This document shows, piece after piece, positions 3-32,441 of a DNA stretch of 64,000 nt; within the stretch, counting starts at the first letter, position 1; the number at the start of each line of letters is the position of its first letter. The translations under genes were made by a program, and so were the position numbers. The DNA comes from Deltaproteobacteria bacterium (lineage in GTDB: Bacteria; Bdellovibrionota_C; UBA2361; SZUA-149; JADZAE01): positions 39,622 to 103,621 of the forward strand of contig JADZAE010000077.1 in assembly GCA_020852715.1 (NCBI GenBank), in the 5' to 3' direction. The notes beneath the pieces are model-generated. The model saw only the letters and a list, made by a program, of their open reading frames with translations, was not told where the DNA came from and made no database searches.

Positions 3-215
3 AAATTATATGGAGCAAAAACGACACCGCATATCTTCATTATCGACACTAATGGAAACATCGCCTATATAGGCGCAGCTGATGCCGATAGCTCTCCAAC
101 GGCGAACCCAAAGGAAACAAAGAATTATATCGCCGCCGCGCTTGATGAGCAGCTAGCAGGGCAGTCTGTTTCTACCCCGGTAACAACTGCTTATGGATGC
201 TCAATAAAATATTAA
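3..215 (+). CDS. Thioredoxin-fold thiol-disulfide oxidoreductase (TlpA/ResA-like), C-terminal fragment. The N-terminus lies outside the window.
   Basis: Frame-3 translation ...KLYGAKTTPHIFIIDTNGNIAYIGAADADSSPTANPKE...IKY* resembles the C-terminal beta-strand region of TlpA/redoxin-family proteins. Stop TAA at 213-215. Confidence 0.45.
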   Translation, partial: KLYGAKTTPHIFIIDTNGNIAYIGAADADSSPTANPKETKNYIAAALDEQLAGQSVSTPVTTAYGCSIKY

Positions 216-301
216 TTCCGATAGGCGTTTTGACAATTACCTATAGATGTTATAGTTTTAGACCCCTCTTTTTAATTTTGATATGAGTAAAGGTTGTTAG
301 G

Positions 302-357
302 CTCACAGCGCCGCGCTGCATGTGCGACGCTGTGAGATAAGTAGGAAAGGTTTAAAG
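302..357 (+). promoter_or_regulatory. Conserved leader element, copy 1: hairpin (ctcacagcg / cgctgtgag), then GCTGTGAGATAAG, then AAAGGTTTAAAG, immediately upstream of the 400..822 gene.
   Basis: The same motif occurs at 5643-5692 and 17592-17613. The stems have different sequences but keep their pairing, which suggests an RNA-level element. Confidence 0.45.
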
Positions 358-385
358 CTGACTTGGTCAGCTTCAATGTTTTTTT
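355..385 (+). terminator. Intrinsic-terminator-like hairpin (aagctgac-ttg-gtcagctt + caatgTTTTTTT) between the leader motif and the RBS of the 400..822 gene. Possible attenuator.
   Basis: Perfect 8-bp stem with a 3-nt loop, followed by a T7 run. It lies upstream of the GGGGAGG RBS and the ATG at 400. Confidence 0.5.
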
Positions 386-399
386 GGGGAGGATTCACT

Positions 400-822
400 A
401 TGTCAATCGGGTATCAGTACTGTAAATGGATTGAGTTTTTATTCGGGGATTACGATCCGGCTTTAAAACTCGGTGGAGACATTAAAGTTTCCGACGAGAT
501 CGAGCTAAGCATACTCCAGGCTATCATGAAAGCAACTAGTATAGTCGGAGAGCAAGATCCAAATGTCTTAACCAATGCACTTATGACGCTGGGAGGGCAG
601 TTCAAAGTAGCTGCCGTTTGCTGGGTAATACAAAGCAGCACAGCAAGAAAAGCAAATAAAGCTGCTAATAATGCTGCAAAATGTTACGATATGGCCGTTG
701 ATTGTGCGGAGCTTGCTGAGCTTGATTGGACCATTCCTGAGCTGCAAGAGATGGAGTCCGAGGCGCATACTTTGGCACTAAAGACACTTCCAAAGCCGGC
801 ACGGGATTTTCCAATTCCTTAA
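400..822 (+). CDS. Hypothetical 140-aa protein, family A, paralog 1. Weakly similar to the 5708..6130 product.
   Basis: ORF with GGGGAGG RBS 8 nt upstream of the ATG at 400. Shared segment LTNALMTLGGQFKVAAVCWV versus IANMLSALGAKIAKLAVQLV in 5708..6130. No domain I recognise. Confidence 0.55.
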   Translation: MSIGYQYCKWIEFLFGDYDPALKLGGDIKVSDEIELSILQAIMKATSIVGEQDPNVLTNALMTLGGQFKVAAVCWVIQSSTARKANKAANNAAKCYDMAVDCAELAELDWTIPELQEMESEAHTLALKTLPKPARDFPIP

Positions 823-847: not shown

Positions 848-1247
848 ATGAATAATGATGAGACTAGTCCTCTCAGACTACTTGAAGTAATTCGCGAGGA
901 ACTGGCCTCGCAGAAATGTCGGAGAGGGATTCAGACAGAATTATCCTTGAAATAAAGGCTGCACTTAATGTGGCTTTTAGTCAAGTTGATTCAGATGCCC
1001 GCGAGTTGGCATTTGCCATGAGCGAGTTGGGAAAGCAGCTCAAGATCGCAGCGGAAACCTGAGCCTCTCAATATGAGACCCGGAAGAAAGCCGTTGAAAG
1101 CGCAATCTGCGCAGCACTGTGCTATGGAAAAGCCACCGTCCATCCCAAGTTAATCAGCCAAAATTGGCTTGATCAGGAAGACGAATGGCAAGGTAAAGAG
1201 TATGAAGCGATCTCTTTCGCTAATACTCTACTCCGGAGAAGATAGTC
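848..1247 (+). pseudogene. Small hypothetical gene disrupted by a frameshift near 916-930 and an in-frame TGA at 1060-1062.
   Basis: AGGAGG RBS before the ATG at 848. The reading continues in the +2 frame (MSERDSDRIILEIKAALNVAF...AAET*ASQYETRKKAVESAICAAL...RRR*) through a TGA. Confidence 0.3.
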
Positions 1248-1312: not shown

Positions 1313-1688
1313 GAAGGCCGGGGCATAGACGGAGTCTTATGCACGAATCCATCGGTTGCGTTACTTCAGAGTACCCGCGCTAGCACCAATGACGCCCATA
1401 ATATTGCGGCGCCTATGGAACTCGACCCATCTTTGGAAACGAAGCGGACAAAGTGGGTCGCCACCGATGCGCATTCACGCGGTGCTTGTCGGCTTCGCCA
1501 CACACCGCCGCCGATATAAACCCATCGCTGATGAATTTTGAACAAATCAAGGTTGATAGAAACTACTTGTCTCACTATTCTTATTACTGACATTACCGGG
1601 AATGCAAGAATCATCTTGCCTTGCCCTCCTGAAAACGGAAACGGATATCTATACCGAAGCTGTTAGCCGAACCGCATGCAGAAAATGT

Positions 1689-4600
1689 ATGTTCGAAAAA
1701 GTAAAACCCTGGGTTGATTTTATTGAGCTGGAGCACAAAGTGCTTCAATTCTGGGATAAAGAGCAAATCTTCCAGCAACTAATTTCAAAAAACCAAAACG
1801 GCCCACGCTGGTCTTTTCTCGATGGCCCAATCACGGCCAACAATTCAATGGGAGTGCATCACGCTTGGGGGCGCACCTTAAAAGACACTTTTCAGCGCTA
1901 CCATGCCATGGAAGGCCAATGCCTTCGCTACCAAAACGGCTTTGACTGCCAAGGACTGTGGGTGGAAGTGGAGGTAGAAAAGCAGTTAGAGTTTAAGTGC
2001 AAAAAAGACATTGAAGCATTTGGCATAGAGAAGTTTGTGAATCTTTGTAAAGAGCGAGTTCACAAATATAGCAAACAAATCACCGCGCTGTCTCGGCGGC
2101 TTGGTTACTGGATAGACTGGGATAATAGTTATTTCACCATGTCCGATGAAAATAACTATACGATCTGGAGCTTCTTAAAAAAGTGCCATGAGCGCGGCTT
2201 GATTTATCACGACTATGACGTTATGCCCTGGTGCCCACGCTGCGGTACCGGTCTATCACAACACGAAATGGGCGAAGGCTATAAAGAAATTGCTCATACC
2301 TCAGTGATCGTCAGATTCCCGCTCACCGAGTGTGGAAACGAATATCTGCTTGTCTGGACAACAACTCCGTGGACTTTATCTTCTAACGTTGCCGTTGCCG
2401 TAAATCCGGATACAATTTATCTTAAAGCCCGACAAGGCGGCGACATTTTAATACTCGCCAAGGCGCTAGCCGATAAAGTGCTAAAAGCTAAAGGTGCCTA
2501 CGAAATCCTATCTGAGCTTCCCGGTAGCGAACTACTTAATTTGAAATACGCTGGTCCCTACGACGAATTACCGGCACAGGTTAAGAACAAACTACGGCAT
2601 AAAGTAATTGCCTGGAAAGAAGTAAGCGACGCTGATGGCACAGGCTTAGTGCATATCGCTCCGGGCTGCGGCAAGAAAGACTTCGCGCTAGGAAAGAAAA
2701 ATGGTCTGCTCGCGCTTTGCTCGATCAGCGAGGAAGGCATTTACGGCGAGGGCTTCGGCTTTCTCACCGGCAAACACGCAAGTTCAGTCGCCGAAGAAGT
2801 GGTAGCGAATCTTAAGAAAAAACAAATTCTCTACTCACAAGAAAAGTTCAAACACAGCTATCCTCATTGTTGGCGCTGCGGCACTGAGCTCTTATTCCGC
2901 TTAGTTAAGGAATGGTTTATTTCCATGGATAGCTGACGCTCTGAAATCATGGAAGTAACTAAGCAAATCACCTGGATTCCAAGTTACGGCAAAGAGCTGG
3001 AGCTAGATTGGCTTAAAAACATGCATGATTGGATGATCTCCAAAAAACGCTATTGGGGATTGGCGCTACCGATCTGGATTTGTCAGGACAAAAACTGTGC
3101 TCACTTTGAAGTTATCGGCAGCAAAGAAGAGTTTAAGGAAAAGGCAATCAGCGGCTGGCAAGACTTTGATGGTCATTCACCGCATCGACCATGGATAGAT
3201 AATGTCCTCATAAAATGTCCAAAATGTGGTGGCCAGGCCAAACGTATTCCCGATGTCGGCAACCCGTGGCTTGATGCCGGTATAGTTCCTTATTCAACAA
3301 TCAAATACAACTCCGACCAAGAGTATTTTAAGCAATGGTTTCCGGCTGACTTAGTGCTTGAATGCTTTCCCTGACAATTTAAGAATTGGTTTTATAGTCT
3401 GCTCGCGATGAGTACGATGATGGAGAATAAGCCACCTTTTAAAACTTTGCTTGGACATGCCTTAGCCAGAGATGAAAAGGGTGCCGAGATGCATAAAAGC
3501 GCCGGCAATGCCATCTGGTTTGACGATGCCACAGAGAAGATGGGCGTCGACGTTATGCGCTGGTTGTATTGCGGCCAGGACGCCACAATCAATCTCAACT
3601 TGGCTTTAATATCACCAAAGAAATTAGGGGAGGGGTAGTTAATACCTATTGGAATACTTACTCGTTCTTTTGTAACGTTGCCGCCGCTGCCAATTTTATT
3701 CCTCAGCGCTCAGCAAGCGAGCCCAAGGACAGGCCGGAAATAGACAGATAGATTATCGCCAAGCTCAATGCCTACTATAAGGTTGCCGCACGTTGTTATG
3801 AGCAGTGCGACACCCACGCTGTTGACAAAGGCGCTGAAGATTTTCTGGAAAATCTTAGTAACTGGTATATTCGGCTCTGCCGCCGACGTTTTTGGGGAGA
3901 GTTATCGGTAAATTCCGACGCGCTTAGCGCTTTTCAAACACTTTATGAGTGCCTGGAGGGATTAACGCGCATTGTAGCTCCGATGCTTCCGTTTATAACT
4001 GAGAATATTTATCAAAATCTTGTTCTCGGTCATGATAAAAATGCGCCGGCCAGTATTCATCTAAGCGACTTTCCAATAGCTAAAGAGGAATTGATTAACA
4101 CCAAGTTAATCGACGAGATGGACGCTATCAGAAAACTTACCACACTGGCTTTATCAGCGCGGGAAAATGCCAAAATAAAGATCAGACAACCTTTAGCTGA
4201 GATTGTTGTCGAGACCGGGGATGTTTTAGTAAAAAAAGCAGCCGATAAATTTAAAGATTTATCACTGGAAACGCTGAACATCAAACTGATGCAGATAAAA
4301 GAGGTCGGGGCTCTCGGCTACCAATTCAAAGTCCAACCCAATTACAAAACCTTAGGACCTAAGCTTGGAGCAGGGTTAAATAAAGTAATTGCGGCGATTG
4401 CCGCTCAGCCCCCCGCAGCGCTTAAAGAACAAATAGATAAACATAAAAGTGCGGCCCTGACTGTAGAAGGACAGTCTGTTACTATAAGTGCTGAAGATAT
4501 CACCTTTAGTATATTACCCATTGCTTCATACAGCATGGCTTCTGACGCCAAATCTGTTGTCGCGGTGAACACCACAATAGATGAAGTGCTGGCTCAGGAA

Positions 4601-4861
4601 GGGTTAATGCTTGATCTGTTGCGCAAGCTCCAAGAGCTGCGCAAAGAAACTGGCCTCGATATCTCTGATCGGATAAATCTTAGCTACAGCACAGAGTCTC
4701 AAGCACTAAAGGCGATGTTTAGCGTTTGGGGGCCATACATCAAAGACGAACTGCTTTGCGAAAAGCTTGAAGTTAGTAGTGACTTAGCTAAAGAACTTGA
4801 GGTGCTTGGAGAACGATTGGCCGTGCAGATCACGAAAATCAATAATCCGCAACACCCATAA
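1689..4861 (+). pseudogene. ileS: Isoleucyl-tRNA synthetase, type 2 (eukaryote/Thermus-like), pseudogene. Three in-frame stops (TGA 2934-2936, TGA 3372-3374, TAG 3749-3751) and a frameshift near 3585-3605. Catalytic motifs are degenerate.
   Basis: N-terminus MFEKVKPW...GPITANNSMGVHHAWGRTLKD, with the HIGH motif replaced by [38 protein letters not shown] region reads EMHKSAGN. The TAG replaces the W of the conserved DRWI motif (EIDR*IIAKLN). WNTYSFF appears in a shifted frame. The C-terminal domain is in ORF 3983..4861. Confidence 0.85.
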
Positions 4862-5432: not shown

Positions 5433-5642
5433 CAAACCCGCATGCGCCGATTCCCCTACGCCCACCACCTTCTCCCCATCATGGTGGCTCATCAACTATG
5501 TAATACAGGTAAAATACTACAAAATTATCCTCCCTAACCCCCCCAATGTTTATTCATAACAATTCTTTGACAATCCGCTATACATTTAATAGAAACTAGC
5601 TCAGTTCTTTTTCATATAGGTAAATACGATTCTAACTCTCAT

Positions 5643-5692
5643 AGCCTCGCACTTATTAGCGGGAGGCTGTGAGATAAGCCAAGGTTTTAAAG
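5643..5692 (+). promoter_or_regulatory. Conserved leader element, copy 2: hairpin agcctcgc / gcgggaggct, then GCTGTGAGATAAG, then AAGGTTTTAAAG, directly before the RBS of the 5708..6130 gene.
   Basis: A 30-nt block shared with 329-357 and 17592-17613. Followed by AAAGGAG and the ATG at 5708. Confidence 0.45.
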
Positions 5693-5707
5693 AAAGGAGA
5701 AAAAACA

Positions 5708-6130
5708 ATGGAAGCCATTGACCGGCACTTAGCACTTTCCTGGGAGAGTTTCTTTCGGGTATTTACACAGGTGAAGGGAAACTGCACACAGGTCACCTCT
5801 GATCAATTTGTAGAATTGCTGCAATCTTTTCAAAGCGTAGTAACCACATTTGAACATGGGCCCACGCAGACCCAGATAGCAAATATGCTCAGCGCACTGG
5901 GGGCAAAAATAGCAAAGCTGGCCGTACAACTTGTACACAACGAACCCCATTCATTACTTTGTTGTCGCGCAGGCATGGATTTATTTATTTGTGCCCAACA
6001 CTGCCAGCTGCAAGCTGCTCGCATTTATGGCGACCAAGGCCATCATAAGGAGCAAGACGAGGCATATTTTGCTTTGCTTGGAAGTATTGGCAGCGCGCAG
6101 GTAGCAGCTTTGAAATTGGCCCGAACTTGA
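5708..6130 (+). CDS. Hypothetical 140-aa protein, family A, paralog 2.
   Basis: ORF with AAAGGAG RBS. Weak similarity to the 400..822 product. The terminator follows. Confidence 0.55.
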   Translation: MEAIDRHLALSWESFFRVFTQVKGNCTQVTSDQFVELLQSFQSVVTTFEHGPTQTQIANMLSALGAKIAKLAVQLVHNEPHSLLCCRAGMDLFICAQHCQLQAARIYGDQGHHKEQDEAYFALLGSIGSAQVAALKLART

Positions 6131-6135
6131 CCGAG

Positions 6136-6169
6136 AAAAGGTGGAGATTGTCGCTAATCTCCACCTTTT
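6136..6169 (+). terminator. Rho-independent terminator (aaaaggtggaga / tctccacctttt, 12-bp stem).
   Basis: Perfect inverted repeat plus a T-run, 6 nt after the stop at 6128-6130. Confidence 0.7.
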
Positions 6170-6236
6170 AGGATTTAGCTTATCTCACTAACTTTAATAA
6201 TTTTCTGCTTCCTACTAATCTACATGTTTTCCGTAA

Positions 6237-9648: not shown

Positions 9649-11555
9649 ATGTTAAGAAACTTGATTGACATCACAATTATTGTTCTGGTCTCGCTCGCCT
9701 GCTTTTCTAATACATTAGAAAATAGCTTTCATTTAGATGATTTCTACAGAGTGCAAGATAATCCAGGCATACAAAGCATAGCTCCTCTTTGGCGCCATTT
9801 CGTAGAGCCACGCCCCATGTCCACGCTCGATAGGATTAAGCAGTTTCGCCCATTATTGCCGCTAACGCTATCATTTAATTATTATTTTCGCGGTGAACAC
9901 ATAGCCGGTTATCATCTAGTAACCTTGGCTTTACAAACCATCACAACAATCTTTGTATTTTTATTTCACCTTGAGCTCTTAACACGCTGGGTCGGTAACG
10001 CCGACGAGCAAAAGGGACGGAGCAATGAACTCATCGCTTTTTTGGCGGCGCTTACTTTTGCCATTCATCCTGTTTCCGGAATACTGGTTAATTATATTTG
10101 TGCCCCCGACTTAATTCTCATGCAGTTTTTTATGATACCAACGCTTTTGATATATGCACGCATGCGCCGCAGGGTAGAAAACTCCCTGCTAAGCTGGATT
10201 AGTATCTTCAAACCAAACCTCCTTTCCATCTTGTCCAAAACAGACACGGCCATGCTCCCGGCAATTATCTTTTTATTTGAAATATTTTTAAACAAAAAAA
10301 CTTAAAAGAGATCAGCCCATATCTACAAACTCTGCCTATCGCTATCGCCATTTTTTGCTATTTTGCATATACCAAATATTATTTGAAATTTTCCGATTTC
10401 GAAAACGTCGTCAACACCCATGGAGCAGCATTTGATTATTTCAAACCTCAACTAGCTCTGCATCTTTTTTATTATCTACGCAATTTCTTCTGGCCCTTCT
10501 ATTTGCGGCAGTTACCAATGATCGACACCGAAACAGCGCTATTTCACGCACAAACCGTAATTGGTGCTATTTTTATACTCCTAACATTATTGATTGCGCT
10601 GCGCGCTTGGAACAAACAGCCAATTATTTCCTTTTGTATATTATCATACTGGGCACCACTTTTCCCGGCAACTTCATTTCTGCCGTTTCATCACTTGATA
10701 GTTGACTATCGGCCATATCCAAGCAGCGTGTTTTTATTTCTGCTACTTGCATATTTAGCCCAGCGATATTTGCCCAACAAAGCATTTATTTCAATAATGC
10801 TAAACTTTATTGTTTTCATAGCTGCCGCCAGCTATTTTCATAACTACAATTGGCGCACTGAGGCAACCCTTTGGACACAGAGTGTGAAACACGGAGCCGA
10901 CGCCACAGCACACATGAATTTAGCAATGTCAATTAAAGATAGAGACGATCCGCGTGTGGAGTATTATTTCCGCGAGGCTTTAAGAATGGCACCGAGGTTC
11001 GCTCTAAGGAATATCAATTTGGGGCTATTATTGCTCGATAAGAATAAGTAAGAAGAGGGGCTCTGGTATTGCCGAAACGCTGTTACGCTAGCCCCGGGCT
11101 GGGGGCAAGTCCACTATTGGCTTTCACAATGCTATAGCAAAGTAGGGGATAGTAAAAATGCATGCTACTCGGCGCTAAGAGCAACCCGACTTGATTCGAA
11201 AAATATCAGTTATCTTCATCGCGCCGCTTTTTTAGTCCAGCAATTTAATGACTACAAGCAAAGCTTAAATCTCCTCCAAAGCGTACCAAATGGCTACCAG
11301 GACGCCCTTTTTCTCAAAGCTTTTGCTGCACAAATGAGTAATCAAAATCAATTAGCGATTAACGCCTATACAGAACTTCTGAACCGACAACCCGAACATA
11401 TGCAGGCCAACTTTAATCTCGGCTATACTCTGATGATAGAAGGGAACTACGCAAAAGCAATTCCATACTTTCAAAAAGCCCTAGAACTCAAACCCGACTA
11501 TGATAAAATTCATAGTTATCTTAGCCGCTGCGCAGATGAGCTAAAGACTCGCTGA
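9649..11555 (+). pseudogene. TMTC-like DUF1736 + TPR-repeat GT-C glycosyltransferase, disrupted by a frameshift near 10306-10382 and an in-frame TAA at 11049-11051.
   Basis: FHLDDFYRVQDNPGI...YRPLLPLT...GYHLVTL (DUF1736 signatures). TPR repeats continue through the TAA (LLLLDKNK*EEGLWYCRNAVTLAPGWGQVHYWL...) into ORF 11334..11555. Confidence 0.75.
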
Positions 11556-16149: not shown

Positions 16150-16878
16150 TTAATTGACAAAGATTGCTAGCTGTACACGGAACCGAATGCTGAGAACTCC
16201 GTAGATAGAAATGACAAACGAGAAGTGAAACAATTCGCAAGAGTCGCGACAACAATTTACGGTTTGTCTTAAAAATCTGGTTACTCACCGGAATAAGTGG
16301 GTAAGAATGTAAAAACTTCCTGGAAATCGTAGAGCGTGAGTTGAGAAAACAAACGCAAGCGCCAACGGCAATTCACGGGCGACCGGCGGGTGACCGCAAA
16401 ATGCCATCGGCAATGGCACCGCATATTCTGTCGAAATGTTTAGCTGATAAAGTAGGACATGGCTTTACCCGAGACACCAAAAAATACGCCGTCATTGTAG
16501 ATTTAGCCATATTCCTATGGGCTTATCAGTCGCATGTACGAGTTTCTTCATTATGTGCGGAACTCAGGCGAAGGCAAACATCGGCAAACAACGATGCTCA
16601 GAATGTTTCTAAACACTTGGATAACCAAAATTATACGCTCCAAAATAGAGCCAATGAAGCACATGGCTCGCCAGATTAGACACCTCCAGCCACTTATTTT
16701 TAATTGGCTTACGGCCAAAAAACTATTCTCTTCCGGAATCGTTGAAGGTTTTAACAACAAAGCTAAAGTCACGCTAAAAAAAGCCTACGGATTTCACACC
16801 TTAAATGCCGTGCAAATCGCGTTATTTCAGCAACTTGGAGCTTTACCTGAACATCTGCTCACCCATACTTTCTGGTGA
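16150..16878 (+). mobile_element. ISL3-family transposase remnant (C-terminal ~240 codons, in several frames). Pseudogene.
   Basis: C-terminal ...SSGIVEGFNNKAKVTLKKAYGFHTLNAVQIALFQQLG is typical of the ISL3 transposase C-terminus. Upstream pieces are in other frames. The N-terminal half is absent. Confidence 0.6.
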
Positions 16879-17591: not shown

Positions 17592-17613
17592 ATGAGATAA
17601 GAAAGGTTTAAAT
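17592..17613 (+). promoter_or_regulatory. Conserved leader motif, copy 3 (ATGAGATAAG AAAGGTTTAAAT). An orphan copy with no downstream family-A gene.
   Basis: Matches the core of the elements at 329-357 and 5666-5692. Confidence 0.35.
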
Positions 17614-17635: not shown

Positions 17636-18721
17636 CTAAGTGACTATCATCCGTAGAATATTCTCCGGGCAAACATGACTACAAAGAGAGCAGCCGTCGC
17701 ATAAATTATTATCGATAAGTATCGGCTTTAGAGAAACTTTTCGCGAAAGTGATTCGTGTGTAGATATTGAGCCCACAGCTTTGCCGCACATTTCCTCAAT
17801 TGAGCTAAATCCCTTGTCGGTCATGTAATTTGTAAGGCCGGCGATCATGGGCCGAATTATCTCAAAACCATTAAGCATCACGGCTGTGCAAACTTGAACC
17901 ACGTAGGAGCTGGCAGAAATATTCGATGGCGTCTTTATAGTCAGAGATACCACCGAGGCCGTGAATAGGAAGTTTAACCTTTGCCGCAATCTGCGAACCA
18001 CATCTTAGGCCAATTGGCTTAACACTTTGTCCGGAATATCCACCGTAGGTAGAATAGCCCGAGACGTTGGGTAGCGGTTGAAACGTATCGATATCTACCC
18101 CCATTAAACACTATACTGTATTAATAGCGGCAAGCGCATCGGCGTTTCCCTCTAAGGCAGCTTGAGTAATGGAGACAATATCCATAACATTTGGCGTAAA
18201 CTTTACGATTAACGGGAACTTTACTTCCGACTTAATCGCCCGGGTCATTTCTCTCTCCAAAGCAGCGTCTTGGCCGATGGCTGCACCAATATGCTTTTCC
18301 GGCATGCCGTTTAACTCAAGCGCATCGGCACCGGCATCAGCAACTGCCTTTGCTACCCCGATCCAGCTTTCTATATTGCTGTGCCCCATAATGCTGGCAC
18401 TGAGCATCTTTCCGGGAAAATCTTTTTTTATTGCTGTTATTTCGGCTAACCAATAGCCGAGACTTTTCTGCTGAGTAGCTCAATATTTTCAAATCCAATT
18501 AATTCGTTTTTTGCGCTTTTGATCGTAGCAAAACGCGGAGATATGTTTTCAATAGTTAAATCATCGGGTGTAATGGTTTTAATAACAGCCCCTCCCCAAC
18601 CGTTAGCAAGATCGCGTCTAATCATTTCACCTGTGGCAGTGGGCGGTCCTGAAGCTAACAAAAAAGGATTTTCATATTCTAGTCCATTGTGAGTAGTTCT
18701 AAGTAAACTTGAAGATGGCAT
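17636..18721 (-). pseudogene. Dihydropyrimidine/dihydroorotate dehydrogenase-family protein with a C-terminal 4Fe-4S ferredoxin domain (PreA-like). Split into four ORFs by two frameshifts and one in-frame stop.
   Basis: NPFLLASGPP... (18721 frame), ...ELNGMPEKHIGAAIGQD...KFPLIVKFTPNV (18407 frame), ...LPIHGLGGISDYKDAIEYF, ...CDGCSLCSHVCPENI. Reading frames run 1, 2, 2, 1. Confidence 0.7.
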
Positions 18722-19483: not shown

Positions 19484-20353
19484 ATGGCAATGAAATTAAA
19501 CGGAACTTTTTTTGATTTTTTTAGCACAGATAAACTTATATTGCATGGGTTACTGGCTAAAACAGCGTCGCGCAACAAGAAGCTGCTGATATTTATTCAT
19601 GGTATGGGCGGATCATTTTATTCTTCGAAGTTGGTGGCCGTATTGGTGGCGGGACTAAAAAATAGTGGTTATGATTTGATGAGCATCAATACGCGCGGGC
19701 ATGGAACAGTTAGCCGCCTTAAGACAAGTAAAGGCGCACGCGTGCTGGGGGGCACTGCGCATGAGGTTTTTAAAGATTGTATTTTTGATATTAAGGGGGC
19801 GATTAAGCAGGCCAAGGAGTTTGGGTATAAGGAGTTCGTCTTGGCCGGGCACAGCACGGGCTGTCAAAAGATTACTTATTTCCAACATCAGGTGCGTGCG
19901 GCAAATGTGAAGGCGGTGATTTTGTTGGCACCGGCCGATGATTACAACATAGACCTTGCGGAGAAAGGTAGGCTGAGGATGGAAAAAGCGGTGCGTATTG
20001 CTAAGGCTATGGTGAAGGCTGGTTACGGCAATATGCCCGTGCCTAGTTGGATTTCGAATTTTAGCGCGCGGCGGTATTTAAGTATTGCGGATAAGAAGAG
20101 TCTGGAAGCGAGCGTGTTTAATTACACTTCTTCACTGAAGATATTTTCTACGCTGAAGCTTCCTGTGTTGGCGGTTTTCGGCACTGATGAGGTTCCGTGC
20201 GGAATGAGTTCTGAGCACATGCTAGATCTACTCCATGTAAAAACAAACGCGCGGCTTTTCATGTCTGCTTTGATCAATAAGGCGGATCACAGCTTTTCGG
20301 GAAAAGAAAAAGAGATGGTTTTGGCCGTTAAAAGTTTTCTAAAAAAACTTTAG
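19484..20353 (+). CDS. Alpha/beta-hydrolase-fold protein.
   Basis: LIFIHGMGGS and the nucleophile elbow GHSTGC (GxSxG). 289 aa, intact. Confidence 0.65.
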   Translation: MAMKLNGTFFDFFSTDKLILHGLLAKTASRNKKLLIFIHGMGGSFYSSKLVAVLVAGLKNSGYDLMSINTRGHGTVSRLKTSKGARVLGGTAHEVFKDCIFDIKGAIKQAKEFGYKEFVLAGHSTGCQKITYFQHQVRAANVKAVILLAPADDYNIDLAEKGRLRMEKAVRIAKAMVKAGYGNMPVPSWISNFSARRYLSIADKKSLEASVFNYTSSLKIFSTLKLPVLAVFGTDEVPCGMSSEHMLDLLHVKTNARLFMSALINKADHSFSGKEKEMVLAVKSFLKKL

Positions 20354-20751
20354 TAGCCAAACAAATCCCTTCTACCTTTTGCTTCCATACATTTATCGAA
20401 GCAATTAGGATAAGTGGTTTGATCAAAGGGGCCTGTTCGTGGTTTTTTAAGGCAATCGCTAACGCAGAATTTACATCTTTCAAATTCCGGCTGGGCAACG
20501 AGCTTACATCGCGCCGCGCTATTGTTTGTATTTTCGCAACTTACAAAATGGCGACAACGGTCCTCGGGGGTGTAATGTTTCGTGCACATCGGGGGTTCTG
20601 TGTAAAGTTTGCAAGTGACATCATAACCGTGACAGGGGTCAAGTTCACAGCGCGGCTGGGCTTGGGTAACGGTGGCGACTAAGTTGATAAATAGGCTTAT
20701 AAATACTCTCAGGGCCAATTTATTGTTTTGCATAATTAGTTGTTTAGACAC
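20350..20751 (-). CDS. Secreted Cys-rich small protein (10 Cys) with a signal peptide. Tandem paralog of 20736..21083.
   Basis: Shared pattern C-x-(L/I)-x-PCHG-x-D-x-x-C...MCT...Y...D-x-CR-x-F-x-x-C...C-x-L...C-K-x-CV...C. N-terminal hydrophobic leader. Confidence 0.55.
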   Translation of the reverse strand: MSKQLIMQNNKLALRVFISLFINLVATVTQAQPRCELDPCHGYDVTCKLYTEPPMCTKHYTPEDRCRHFVSCENTNNSAARCKLVAQPEFERCKFCVSDCLKKPRTGPFDQTTYPNCFDKCMEAKGRRDLFGY

Positions 20752-21083
20752 CCGGCTTCGCAGGTAAAGGCAGCCATGGGATCATCAGTATTATTTCTTT
20801 CGCAGTTTTCCACACAGACTTTACAAGTAGTAAATTGGCTCGACATACTAAGCGCGCAAATGCCATTTTGTTTTTGGCAAGTGGCGAATTGGCGGCAATT
20901 ATCGCCGAGCTGATACTCTTCCGTGCACATTTGTGGTTCATCGAGCTCGGTGCATTGAATATCAAGTCCGTGGCAGGGAGTAATTGCGCACTGTTTGGTG
21001 CTATCATCGCCGGAGGTGCCGCCACAGCTTAAAAGAAAGATAAAAGAAGCTAAGACGGCGATGGATAAATTTCTATGTCGCAT
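20736..21083 (-). CDS. Cys-rich small lipoprotein (lipobox LLSCGG). Tandem paralog of 20350..20751.
   Basis: MRHRNLSIAVLASFIFLLSCGG... The mature domain has the same Cys spacing as its neighbour. It overlaps the neighbour by 16 nt. Confidence 0.55.
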   Translation of the reverse strand: MRHRNLSIAVLASFIFLLSCGGTSGDDSTKQCAITPCHGLDIQCTELDEPQMCTEEYQLGDNCRQFATCQKQNGICALSMSSQFTTCKVCVENCERNNTDDPMAAFTCEAGCLNN

Positions 21084-23532: not shown

Positions 23533-24536
<1,004 letters not shown>

Positions 24537-27538: not shown

Positions 27539-27657
27539 CTAGTGCCCTACACCCACCTCATAGGACTCTCGTAGCTGGTGCAGGGCACCAATCTCTCAAT
27601 ATCCCTCAATCCTAACTCCCTAATATCTTGAATTAATTCTGGTGCAGGGCGCCAAAA
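27539..27657. repeat. REP-like palindromic repeat cluster B (units at 27539-27557, 27574-27591 and 27638-27657).
   Basis: ctagtgccctacacccacc; gctggtgcagggcaccaa; tctggtgcagggcgccaaaa. Confidence 0.55.
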
Positions 27658-30502: not shown

Positions 30503-31124
30503 ATGGACAATAGCACGATTATAGAAAAAATAAGGGATCATATAAGAGAAAAGTTCTCTGGAGAGGGATCTGGACATGACTGGTGGCATATTTATCGAGT
30601 GTGGAAAACTGCTGTTGCTATTGCTCAAAGAGAAGGCGCCGATTTATTTGTCGTGGAATTGGCCGCTCTTTTACATGATATTGCTGATTGGAAATTCAAT
30701 GGCGGAGACGATGAAGCAGGCCCTAAAATGGCAAGAGAATGGTTAGAAGGATTATGCGTAGAAGAATCAATTATCGTTTAAAGGCGCTGGGGTGAGCGCC
30801 TGTATGGCGACATTAGAAGGAATAGTTGTACAAGATGCCGATCGCTTAGATACCATCGGGGCTATCGGAATTGCTCGGGTATTTGCATACGGGGGGCATG
30901 CTAATCGCGAGCTCTATAATCCAGAGGAAAAGCCAAGCCTTCATCAGTCATTTGAGCAATATAAGAACAATAAAAGTTCTTCTATTAATCATTTTTATGA
31001 AAAGCTCTTACTTTTAAAGGACCTTATGAATACAAACACTGCAAAGGTATTAGCCGCAGAAAGACATCAATATATGAATGCCTATCTGGATAGATTCTTC
31101 CAGAAATGGGACGGAGTAGCGTAA
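30503..31124 (+). pseudogene. HD-domain phosphohydrolase (YedJ/YpgQ-like) with a single frameshift near 30762-30781.
   Basis: HDWWHIYRVWKTAVAIAQ...LLHDIAD (frame 2). Then IVVQDADRLDTIGAIGIARVFAYGG continues in frame 0. Confidence 0.65.
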
Positions 31125-31386
31125 TCAACATCGCAATCCATTACTAGATTAATAATCAGCAATATTTAAGTCTTTGTAAATATTATATGATTCTTTATTA
31201 TTGGCAATTTACAGCTAATAACTAACCGCATTTATAGGAAATGATGCTGCTGCAAAAAAACATTACTTCACCCACAAAAAGCTTTTACTATTAAATCAGG
31301 AAGTTGAACTCTTACATAAATTATTTCTTAAAAACATGAACTATTTTGCAATAATTTTCTAATTCTACACGACAATTAATAGGAAC

Positions 31387-31604: not shown

Positions 31605-32441
31605 TTGCATAAACAGATGCCTAGAGTAAGAAAAATATATCCCAAAGATAGTATTGTCTTTGTGACGACAAGTACCAAAGACAATCTACCTTTTATCCCC
31701 AATATTCTTATTAATGCTATACTAGCAAGCATTATTGCACGTGCTCAATTTTTGTACGGTCAGCAAATTATTGGTTTTTGCTTTATGGCTAATCACCTCC
31801 ATATGATGATCAAGATCAATATACCAGATACCGCAAGCCGCTTTATTGGCTATATCAAATTTGAATCAGCAAAAGCTGTTAACCAACTACTCGGTAGAGA
31901 ATCGCACAATGTCTGGTGTTCAGGTTTCGATTCTCCTAAAGTTGTTACATACGATACAGTTATCGAAAAACTTAATTACATATACTTGAACCCCGTAAAG
32001 GCGCGCTTAGTAAATTCCATTGAAGAATATCCTGGACTGAGTTCCTGGGAGGCATTTTCACAGGGGCAAATCTGCAAAGAAGTAACTTGGATAAAAGTAT
32101 CAAGTATCACAAAATTAAGAACCACTAAAATGTCGATTGTCGAACAAAAAATGGAATTAAATAAGTTAATGAGCTGCAATGACAAAAAGTATAATTTTAA
32201 AATTTCTCCTAATGCTTGGCTGGAATGTTATCCCGAGATAAAACATCAAAAGCCTCACAATGTAATTAAGAAAATGATTAACCAAATTAAAAAAGCTGAA
32301 GAAGAATATAAAAAAGATAAGCCAAAAATATTTGGAGTTCTCAGGCTACAAACTCAAGAAATAAACGCCGAATATAAGAGCAAAAACAAGGAAGAAGAAC
32401 CTCATTTATTAGCTCTAATATCGCTCTCCGCGTGCATTTAA
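31605..32441 (+). mobile_element. Y1 HUH tyrosine transposase (IS200/IS605 TnpA-like / REP-associated RayT-like), 278 aa with a Lys/Glu-rich C-terminal extension.
   Basis: HUH motif ANHLHMMIKI and catalytic Tyr motif YIYLNPVKARLV. Flanked at a distance by REP-like clusters C and D. Confidence 0.7.

Follow-up and report, generated by a model that had tools for sequence, protein, structure and literature searches.

The window analysed here is a stretch of 64,000 nucleotides (nt) of contig JADZAE010000077.1 (positions 39,622 to 103,621 of the forward strand; positions below count from its first letter), taken from the metagenome-assembled genome (MAG) of a bacterium labelled Deltaproteobacteria (GCA_020852715.1). 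Near the start of the window lie two small orphan genes, P1 and P2, and immediately 5' of each stands a copy of a noncoding module composed of a promoter-like block, a 5' segment, a hairpin and a short tail motif. The tail motif occurs a third time further downstream, and its core recurs in inverted orientation behind both genes. The module is the subject of this analysis, and a cis-regulatory leader is the most economical reading of it. The features on which the argument rests are the following.

215 to 357, forward strand: module copy 1 (promoter-like block, 5' segment, hairpin, tail motif), delimited by alignments.
230 to 258, forward strand: promoter-like block of copy 1, with TTGACA (230-235), a 17-nt spacer and TAGTTT (253-258); conserved string TTGACAATNNNCTATANATNTNATAG.
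302 to 336, forward strand: hairpin of copy 1, 9 bp plus 5 bp with the loop UGCAU, -24.4 kcal/mol.
334 to 357, forward strand: tail motif of copy 1, GAGATAAG-TAGGA-AAGGTTTAAAG.
350 to 385, forward strand: intrinsic-terminator-like hairpin of copy 1, AAGCTGAC/GTCAGCTT, extended by GUU/AAU and followed by T7.
386 to 822, forward strand: Shine-Dalgarno (SD) sequence GGGGAGGA (386-393) and orphan gene P1 (400-822, 140 aa, all-helical).
5550 to 5692, forward strand: module copy 2, delimited by alignments.
5567 to 5595, forward strand: promoter-like block of copy 2, with TTGACA (5567-5572), a 17-nt spacer and TAGAAA (5590-5595).
5637 to 5674, forward strand: hairpin of copy 2, 12 contiguous bp including one G·U pair, -24.2 kcal/mol.
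5669 to 5692, forward strand: tail motif of copy 2, GTGAGATAAG-CC-AAGGTTTTAAAG, abutting the SD.
5696 to 6130, forward strand: SD GGAG (5696-5699) and orphan gene P2 (5708-6130, 140 aa, a five-helix bundle in its model).
17592 to 17613, forward strand: copy 3, TGAGATAAG-AAAGGTTTAAA, equal to copy 1 minus the four bases TAGG.

Across the whole window, the forward strand contains three matches to GAGATAAG-N1-5-AAGGTTT (334-353, 5671-5687 and 17594-17609), and none appears in 100 dinucleotide-preserving shuffles, in agreement with the original prediction of a motif in three copies. Copies 1 and 2 stand, as had been described, directly ahead of the open reading frames (ORFs) for 140-aa proteins at 400-822 and 5708-6130, and copy 3 is indeed an orphan with no forward-strand ORF downstream. 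The similarity between the first two copies is far longer than the block of about 30 nt initially reported: the upstream regions 215-357 and 5550-5692 can be aligned over about 143 nt, promoter-like block included. Copy 1 and positions 5566-5707 are 61.6% identical over the compared stretch, against 43.4 ± 4.3% for shuffled sequences (maximum 52.8%) and 37-53% for ten other upstream regions in the window. Conservation is concentrated in the promoter-like block, a TCTTTTT..ATAT..GTAAA segment, the hairpin and the tail, and perfect blocks of 13 nt and 9 nt lie within the upstream parts of the two copies.

The promoter-like block, written as TTGACAAT-N3-CTATA-N-AT-N-T-N-ATAG, is found in the window at 230-255 and 5567-5592 only, and not at all in the shuffles. 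Its -35 element TTGACA is perfect in both copies, and the -10 element at 17 nt matches the sigma-70 hexamer TATAAT at 3/6 positions in copy 1 and 2/6 in copy 2; a promoter consensus scan listed neither block. We infer that the block is a promoter, with transcription starting near 265 and 5602.

Between the presumed start and the gene, each leader is predicted to fold into a stable hairpin. The fold is more stable than expected from composition in both (z = -3.1 for copy 1 and -3.9 for copy 2), and none of 200 shuffles folds equally well. Both hairpins finish in the GTGAG(A) of the motif, as first noticed. The stems themselves had been described as different in sequence, which does not survive closer alignment: copy 2 had been paired out of register, its correct stem is UCUCAUAGCCUC/GAGGCUGUGAGA, and the outer 8 bp are common to both copies, reading CTCAYAGC/GCTGTGAG. 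Further pairing is added within the spacer that separates these arms, by 5 bp in copy 1 and by 4 contiguous bp in copy 2, and in this inner stem the sequences differ between copies and pairing is retained in both. The suggestion that pairing is kept while sequence is not therefore applies to the inner stem but not to the outer 8 bp, and two sequences contribute a single compensatory pair. Among 13 consensus pairs obtained with RNAalifold from the two sequences, that one changes G-C to C-G, and three more change on one side only, to or from G·U. The one-sided changes yield G·U on the forward strand; on the reverse strand, A·C would result. This substitution pattern modestly favours an RNA of the forward strand, or a single-strand structure, two sequences being no test of covariation.

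The identity of the outer arms has a second possible cause. They are conserved as sequence and not merely as pairing, their spacing is nearly equal (19 versus 20 nt), and the conserved module contains a promoter-like block. All of this would suit a duplicated promoter-operator, in which the palindrome CTCAYAGC-N19/20-GCTGTGAG and its flanking boxes bind a DNA-binding repressor that forms a roadblock immediately past the promoter, the RNA structure being incidental. Isolated extra core sites in either orientation, which are described below, would then resemble half-sites. A protein site, however, does not need a self-complementary spacer, and the spacer is self-complementary in both copies by different sequences. 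Only on the forward strand does the C-to-T change produce G·U, and the distance from GAGATAAG to AAGGTTT varies between 1 and 5 nt, which is awkward for a rigid site on duplex DNA. A plain operator is an unlikely explanation.

Downstream of the hairpin, the tail motif enters two different arrangements. In copy 1, positions 337-342 are predicted to be unpaired and positions 343-357 are drawn into an extended terminator stem, so that the conserved GGTTTAAAG lies inside the 5' arm of this terminator. The terminator consists of an 8-bp stem (355-362/366-373) and a run of seven T at 379-385, ahead of the SD. The gap between the 8-bp stem and the T run is 5 bases, and the GUU/AAU extension (350-352/375-377) reduces it to 1 nt. 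By sequence, copy 1 thus has the features of a predicted intrinsic terminator, with a modest stem of -10 to -13 kcal/mol. The element had been called a textbook terminator; the 8-bp stem and T7 before the SD are present as described, but the stability is modest, and the hairpin with its U7 is best regarded as a credible but modest candidate for intrinsic termination. In copy 2, the motif abuts the ribosome-binding site, as reported, ending at 5692 with 3 nt between it and the SD GGAG at 5696-5699. In the predicted folds of both copies, the SD region pairs with the 5' bases of the leader (CCUCUUU and UUCUUUUUC), a prediction that hinges on the assumed transcription starts. A leader peptide was considered and rejected: the short ORFs of copy 1, MSKGC-stop and MCDAVR-stop, are without a counterpart in copy 2.

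That one conserved core leads into two different arrangements downstream could also indicate a small-molecule riboswitch of a new class, with hairpin and tail as the aptamer and an expression platform that is transcriptional in copy 1 and translational in copy 2. The overlap of the copy 1 tail with the 5' arm of the terminator would fit such a design. The predicted folds do not. Hairpin and terminator of copy 1 fold independently, and in the partial transcript 265-362 no competing antiterminator helix forms and the 5' arm of the terminator is unpaired. There is no mutually exclusive pairing of terminator and antiterminator, so no riboswitch-type switch is visible in copy 1, and the riboswitch-like architecture originally proposed is not upheld. 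The element is a single hairpin with no multi-stem junction, and neither a pseudoknot nor a loop-tail pairing is conserved between the copies; a candidate loop-tail pseudoknot, CUUAU/AUAAG, is possible in copy 2 only and was discarded as not conserved. The genes downstream encode orphan helical proteins, not transporters or enzymes, and scans of 185,579 species genomes and of metagenomes do not find the element. A riboswitch is highly improbable.

The two genes preceded by the module are orphans in every collection searched. Their self-matches are annotated as hypothetical protein IT292_10665 (P1) and IT292_10675 (P2) [Deltaproteobacteria bacterium], and among 5.8e9 clustered proteins neither matches anything beyond itself. 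A family profile, run with full HMMER against 1.84e9 representatives, recovers P1, P2 and three long proteins hit over several short stretches, which are taken to be spurious. Searches of the proteins against Pfam, PHROGs, PADLOC and PDB sequences return nothing, and a Foldseek search with the P2 model returns generic helical bundles only. Both SDs are strong, and AlphaFold gives P2, from a single sequence, a predicted local distance difference test (pLDDT) score of 76 and a predicted template modelling (pTM) score of 0.73; P1 reaches a pLDDT of 47. With strong SDs and a confident single-sequence fold for P2, the genes look real.

P1 and P2 had been termed paralogous and weakly related. Sequence comparison gives this no support: BLASTP returns E=2.6, z scores against shuffles are 1.5 for global and 0 for local alignment, and hhalign finds, at E=0.18, a weak match in common register over residues 31-76 of both. 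The predicted helices coincide, at residues 32-48, 54-79, 82-105 and 112-128 in P1 and 31-49, 54-78, 83-109 and 113-139 in P2. Given the equal length, the coinciding predicted helices and the hhalign register, a distant homology is possible, and the helix coincidence would be compatible with a distant family under common control. Two further features complete the gene units.

848 to 1245, forward strand: P1b, a broken paralog of P1 (BLASTP E=1e-9, 39% identity over 80 aa).
6136 to 6169, usable on both strands: terminator hairpin after P2, a 14-bp perfect stem AAAAGGTGGAGATT/AATCTCCACCTTTT.

P1b lies directly after P1. It is broken near 915 by a frameshift and at 1060-1062 by an in-frame TGA, which aligns with a Trp of P1. 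The noncoding parts of the P1 and P2 units are homologous (62%) and their coding parts are without detectable similarity, which implies that the noncoding part is either constrained or more recently shared.

The first 27 kb or so of the window form a decaying region. The ileS gene at 1602-4861 (forward strand) has in-frame TGA codons at 2934-2936 and 3372-3374, a frameshift near 3600 and an in-frame TAG at 3749-3751, and represents either a pseudogene or very badly assembled sequence. As ileS is essential and this gene is broken, a second ileS must exist elsewhere. Recoding of TGA was rejected as the cause of the broken genes, since ileS also has the in-frame TAG and the frameshift. Further into the region, a preA/dihydroorotate-dehydrogenase-like gene with a Fer4 tail (17636-18721, reverse strand) and a trpS-like gene (23533-24536, reverse strand) are each split into several ORF fragments, and an ISL3 transposase remnant lies at 16341-16878. 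Copy 3 is situated here, 23 nt past the stop of the convergent, broken preA-like gene and with the ISL3 remnant adjoining. It has neither hairpin nor promoter block nor a gene 3' of it, its fold is unremarkable (z=+0.55), and a covariance model of the two leaders passes over it. In this decaying neighbourhood, copy 3 may be a relic.

The same could be asked of the whole module. A segmental duplication or gene conversion of a gene together with its upstream region would leave non-functional copies whose similar blocks have not yet decayed, and decayed neighbours are plentiful: P1b, the ileS, trpS and preA-like fragments and the ISL3 remnant, with copy 3 itself resembling a fragment. Neutral decay would nevertheless be expected to run the other way. 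The coding sequences have diverged beyond recognition and the upstream parts remain 62% identical with their perfect 13-nt and 9-nt blocks, and equal hairpin stability is held by different inner sequences. That the module is merely such a relic is rather improbable.

The core of the motif also occurs in inverted orientation 3' of both units.

1563 to 1575, reverse strand: inverted core copy of unit 1, GTGAGACAAGTAG, a 12/13 match to 332-344, 27 nt before the ATG of ileS.
6175 to 6188, reverse strand: inverted core copy of unit 2, GTGAGATAAGCTAA, a 13/14 match to 5669-5682, 6 nt past the terminator hairpin of P2.

Both gene units, P1-P1b and P2, are bracketed by inverted repeats of 13-14 nt, an arrangement that the original prediction had missed. 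The single mismatch of 1563-1575 to 332-344 would be a G·U pair in forward-strand RNA. In a first-order Markov simulation, the exact 10-mer has P=5e-4 within 520 nt, and P=0.04 within 1240 nt if up to one mismatch is tolerated; the joint chance of at most one mismatch at both sites is 6.5e-4 when simulated, and about 2e-5 as the product of the single-site values. The inverted cores could be recombination sites, further sites of a factor, or 5'-3' pairing partners in read-through transcripts.

Under the first of these possibilities, the core GTGAGATAAG would be a recombination site at the level of DNA, and the units 332-1575 and 5669-6188, flanked by their inverted copies, would be either invertible segments that uncouple a gene from a fixed promoter and hairpin, or small cargo cassettes with terminal inverted repeats, inserted at a conserved hairpin target. 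Besides the repeats themselves and their low joint chance, this possibility draws on the geometry of unit 2, in which the promoter, once the unit had flipped, would read directly into the bidirectional terminator at 6136-6169, an OFF state, and on the transposase remnants and pseudogenes of the surrounding 27 kb. The machinery, in contrast, is not apparent. A Pfam scan of about 40 ORFs of the window, comprising several below 150 aa and nearly all of those at or above that length, gives no match to a serine or tyrosine recombinase; mobile elements are represented only by the ISL3 remnant and, 25 kb away, by a Y1 transposase-like protein. Copies 1 and 2 remain homologous for about 105 nt beyond the outer edge of the left repeat; the repeats therefore do not delimit the repeated unit, as would be expected of plain terminal repeats at the ends of a mobile element. 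No sign of a target-site duplication is seen, the repeat lengths were chosen post hoc, and copy 3 is without a convincing inverted partner; a candidate partner at 23627 was rejected, as it lies inside the trpS-like coding sequence. Recombination at the cores is a minority possibility, with odds clearly against it.

Searches for further copies were directed at known families, other genomes and the relatives of the source organism. An Rfam 15 scan of the window at gathering thresholds yields a lone match, the tRNA at 47601-47672, and a sensitive scan of 200-450 (to E=10) gives at best 14.5 bits against a threshold of 91, for the terminator hairpin; the motif had not been recognised as a known one, and Rfam concurs. 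Over 185,579 species genomes, a collection that does not include the source MAG, the pattern TGAGATAAGN{1,5}AAGGTTTWAA gives 79 single matches in unrelated taxa, none with a hairpin, and these are read as chance, about 40 chance matches having been estimated before the scan. The pattern CTGTGAGATAAGN{1,6}AAGGTTT gives nine matches over JGI metagenomes, again none with a hairpin, and the viral contigs of IMG/VR give 0 and 4 matches in the scans, judged to be chance. The covariance model, built from the two leaders and run with filters off, finds within the window its two training copies and their palindromic reverse matches and nothing else. It has no match in five loci of the nearest relatives, which were reached through a neighbouring GT39 glycosyltransferase that is 50-55% identical; the P2 region is not syntenic in these loci, where multihaem cytochrome c3-type genes are present. 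Copies in relatives, proposed as a check on the motif, are wanting in five relative loci and in the genome, metagenome and viral collections alike, as far as these collections reach: the rest of the source genome, where further copies are likeliest, lies outside them and outside the gene index. A literature search for the motif strings returns primer sequences only. With no copies in relatives and no real covariation, the two measures by which a new structured RNA class was to be judged, such a class is not supported at present.

Taken together, copies 1 and 2 are tentatively read, with somewhat less than even confidence, as versions of one lineage-specific promoter plus 5'-leader module that answers to a trans-acting factor and serves P1 (with the decayed P1b) and P2. 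This reading is supported by the three occurrences of the motif against none in shuffles, the 62% identity of the upstream regions and the presence of the promoter-like block at two places only. It is also supported by the matched stability of the hairpins, the inner pairing kept by different sequences and the leader z scores of -3.1 and -3.9, and by a conserved tail that runs into a terminator and SD in copy 1 and into the SD alone in copy 2. In both units the module is placed between the -35-like TTGACA and the SD. The original suggestion of a cis-regulatory RNA or a shared factor site is upheld in the leader layout, the conserved hairpin and the G·U changes, but not in covariation or in a riboswitch architecture.

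In this leader, transcription would begin a few bases past the TTGACA-N17-TAG... box, near 265 and 5602. The transcript would fold into a very stable hairpin with the conserved foot CUCAYAGC/GCUGUGAG, as its sequence and predicted fold suggest for the cell, and the hairpin would be followed by a conserved, mostly single-stranded and purine-rich tail, AUAAG..AAGGUUU(U)AAAG. Hairpin and tail together may form the docking site of a trans-acting factor that co-regulates both genes, for which a protein or a small RNA (sRNA) seems likelier than a metabolite. A factor occupying copy 1 would weaken termination, since the tail's 3' portion doubles there as the lower 5' arm of the putative terminator. 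At copy 2, with 3 nt left between tail and SD, it would affect the access of ribosomes. The two inverted cores and copy 3 would be additional sites of this factor, or relics.

Several observations weigh against this reading. There are two full copies, which leaves the structure almost without comparative support, and no further full copy is found in the window, the relatives' loci or the genome, metagenome and viral collections; the absence from Rfam points the same way. The -10 elements TAGTTT and TAGAAA are poor, and copy 1 lacks a competing antiterminator helix. Copy 3 comes without hairpin and without gene, and a pure leader model leaves the inverted cores 3' of both units unexplained. The region is rich in pseudogenes, and relaxed selection or relic status is possible for the module as well.

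A more far-reaching proposal is that the hairpin and GAGAUAAG..AAGGUUUAAAG module with its bracketing inverted cores constitutes an undescribed switch, which is doubtful in either of its two forms. In one form, leader RNAs that bind a factor would make up a new class, restricted to an uncultured lineage labelled Deltaproteobacteria. In the other, inversion sites would flank the genes, and a promoter and hairpin fixed in place would read into an orphan gene that can flip. Should the inverted cores serve recombination, what is switched would be whole small genes rather than promoters. Should the module work as a leader, it would mark a small regulon of orphan helical proteins that evolve fast, and hairpin and tail would provide a handle on the regulator. 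The scope is local in any case, covering one MAG and two full copies, with no bearing on a long-standing open question.

Other loci of the window show features of their own. At 31605-32441 (forward strand) lies a gene for a 278-aa protein with an IS200-like Y1 transposase domain (PF01797, E=1.6e-7). GGTGC-N3-GCACC palindromes occur on both sides of it, at 27578, 30357, 30402, 32830 and about 32876, and GTGCNNNGCAC has 4 occurrences against 0.57 expected. The gene and its palindromes resemble repetitive extragenic palindromic (REP) elements around a RAYT gene and are unrelated to the hairpins of the module. Between the palindromes, an HD-domain-like gene at 30504-31125 (forward strand) has an apparent stop near 30780. 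The adjacent ORFs at 20350-20751 and 20736-21083 (both on the reverse strand) encode proteins of 133 and 115 aa with signal-peptide-like N-termini and the common cysteine pattern PCHG.D..C....P.MCT..Y...D.C..F..C; they look like a tandem pair of paralogous, secreted proteins rich in Cys. At 9649-11051 (forward strand), two consecutive ORFs of 218 and 222 aa, without a Pfam match, are divergent from the GT39 glycosyltransferase gene. The nearest relatives have at this position a single DUF6051 gene of 406-413 aa, of which the two ORFs may be a split ortholog.

Among known systems, mobile and recombining elements share some traits with the module. REP/RAYT systems and the subterminal hairpins of IS200/IS605 elements are likewise stable extragenic hairpins with a conserved foot and flanking bases, and the window has its own Y1 transposase-like gene. 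Here, in contrast, there are two hairpin copies only, both placed equally relative to promoter box and SD, and the palindromes on either side of the Y1_Tnp gene, GTGC-N3-GCAC, are unrelated to them, so that the module does not belong with REP/RAYT systems. It is not an integron attC site either: GTTAGGC lies 5' of the copy 1 hairpin and CTAAC at the aligned place in copy 2, with no paired core sites, and a cassette array is contradicted by the 3.3-kb ileS pseudogene between the units and by the lack of an integrase among the Pfam-scanned ORFs. With invertons, the locus shares short inverted repeats around a segment (13/14 and 12/13), 13-14 nt long and 0.5-1.2 kb apart around a functional unit beside a fixed promoter. 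Unlike in invertons, the repeats enclose genes and not the promoter, and neither a cognate recombinase nor any recombinase gene nearby is detected among the scanned ORFs.

RNA leaders form the second group. In size and layout, the module is comparable to small riboswitches of the preQ1-I type, which also consist of one stem-loop followed by an A-rich tail beside an SD or terminator. It differs from them in having no conserved loop-tail pseudoknot, no antiterminator and no Rfam match, in preceding genes without a metabolic link, and in its confinement to a single MAG. In conclusion, the module reads as one more case of an already familiar type of element; two full copies, with none found elsewhere, cannot show a new RNA class. 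Among its closest known counterparts are the 5' leaders of paralogous genes that are bound by a protein or targeted by an sRNA, such as the leaders of ribosomal-protein genes or those of CsrA/RsmA type. The module departs from these leaders in having no conserved CsrA consensus with GGA in a loop (copies 2 and 3 read AAGGUU), no Rfam leader match and two copies only. In common with them, it places a conserved hairpin and a single-stranded purine-rich stretch between promoter and SD, its conserved part touches the SD in copy 2 and the terminator in copy 1, and it precedes several genes of one genome.

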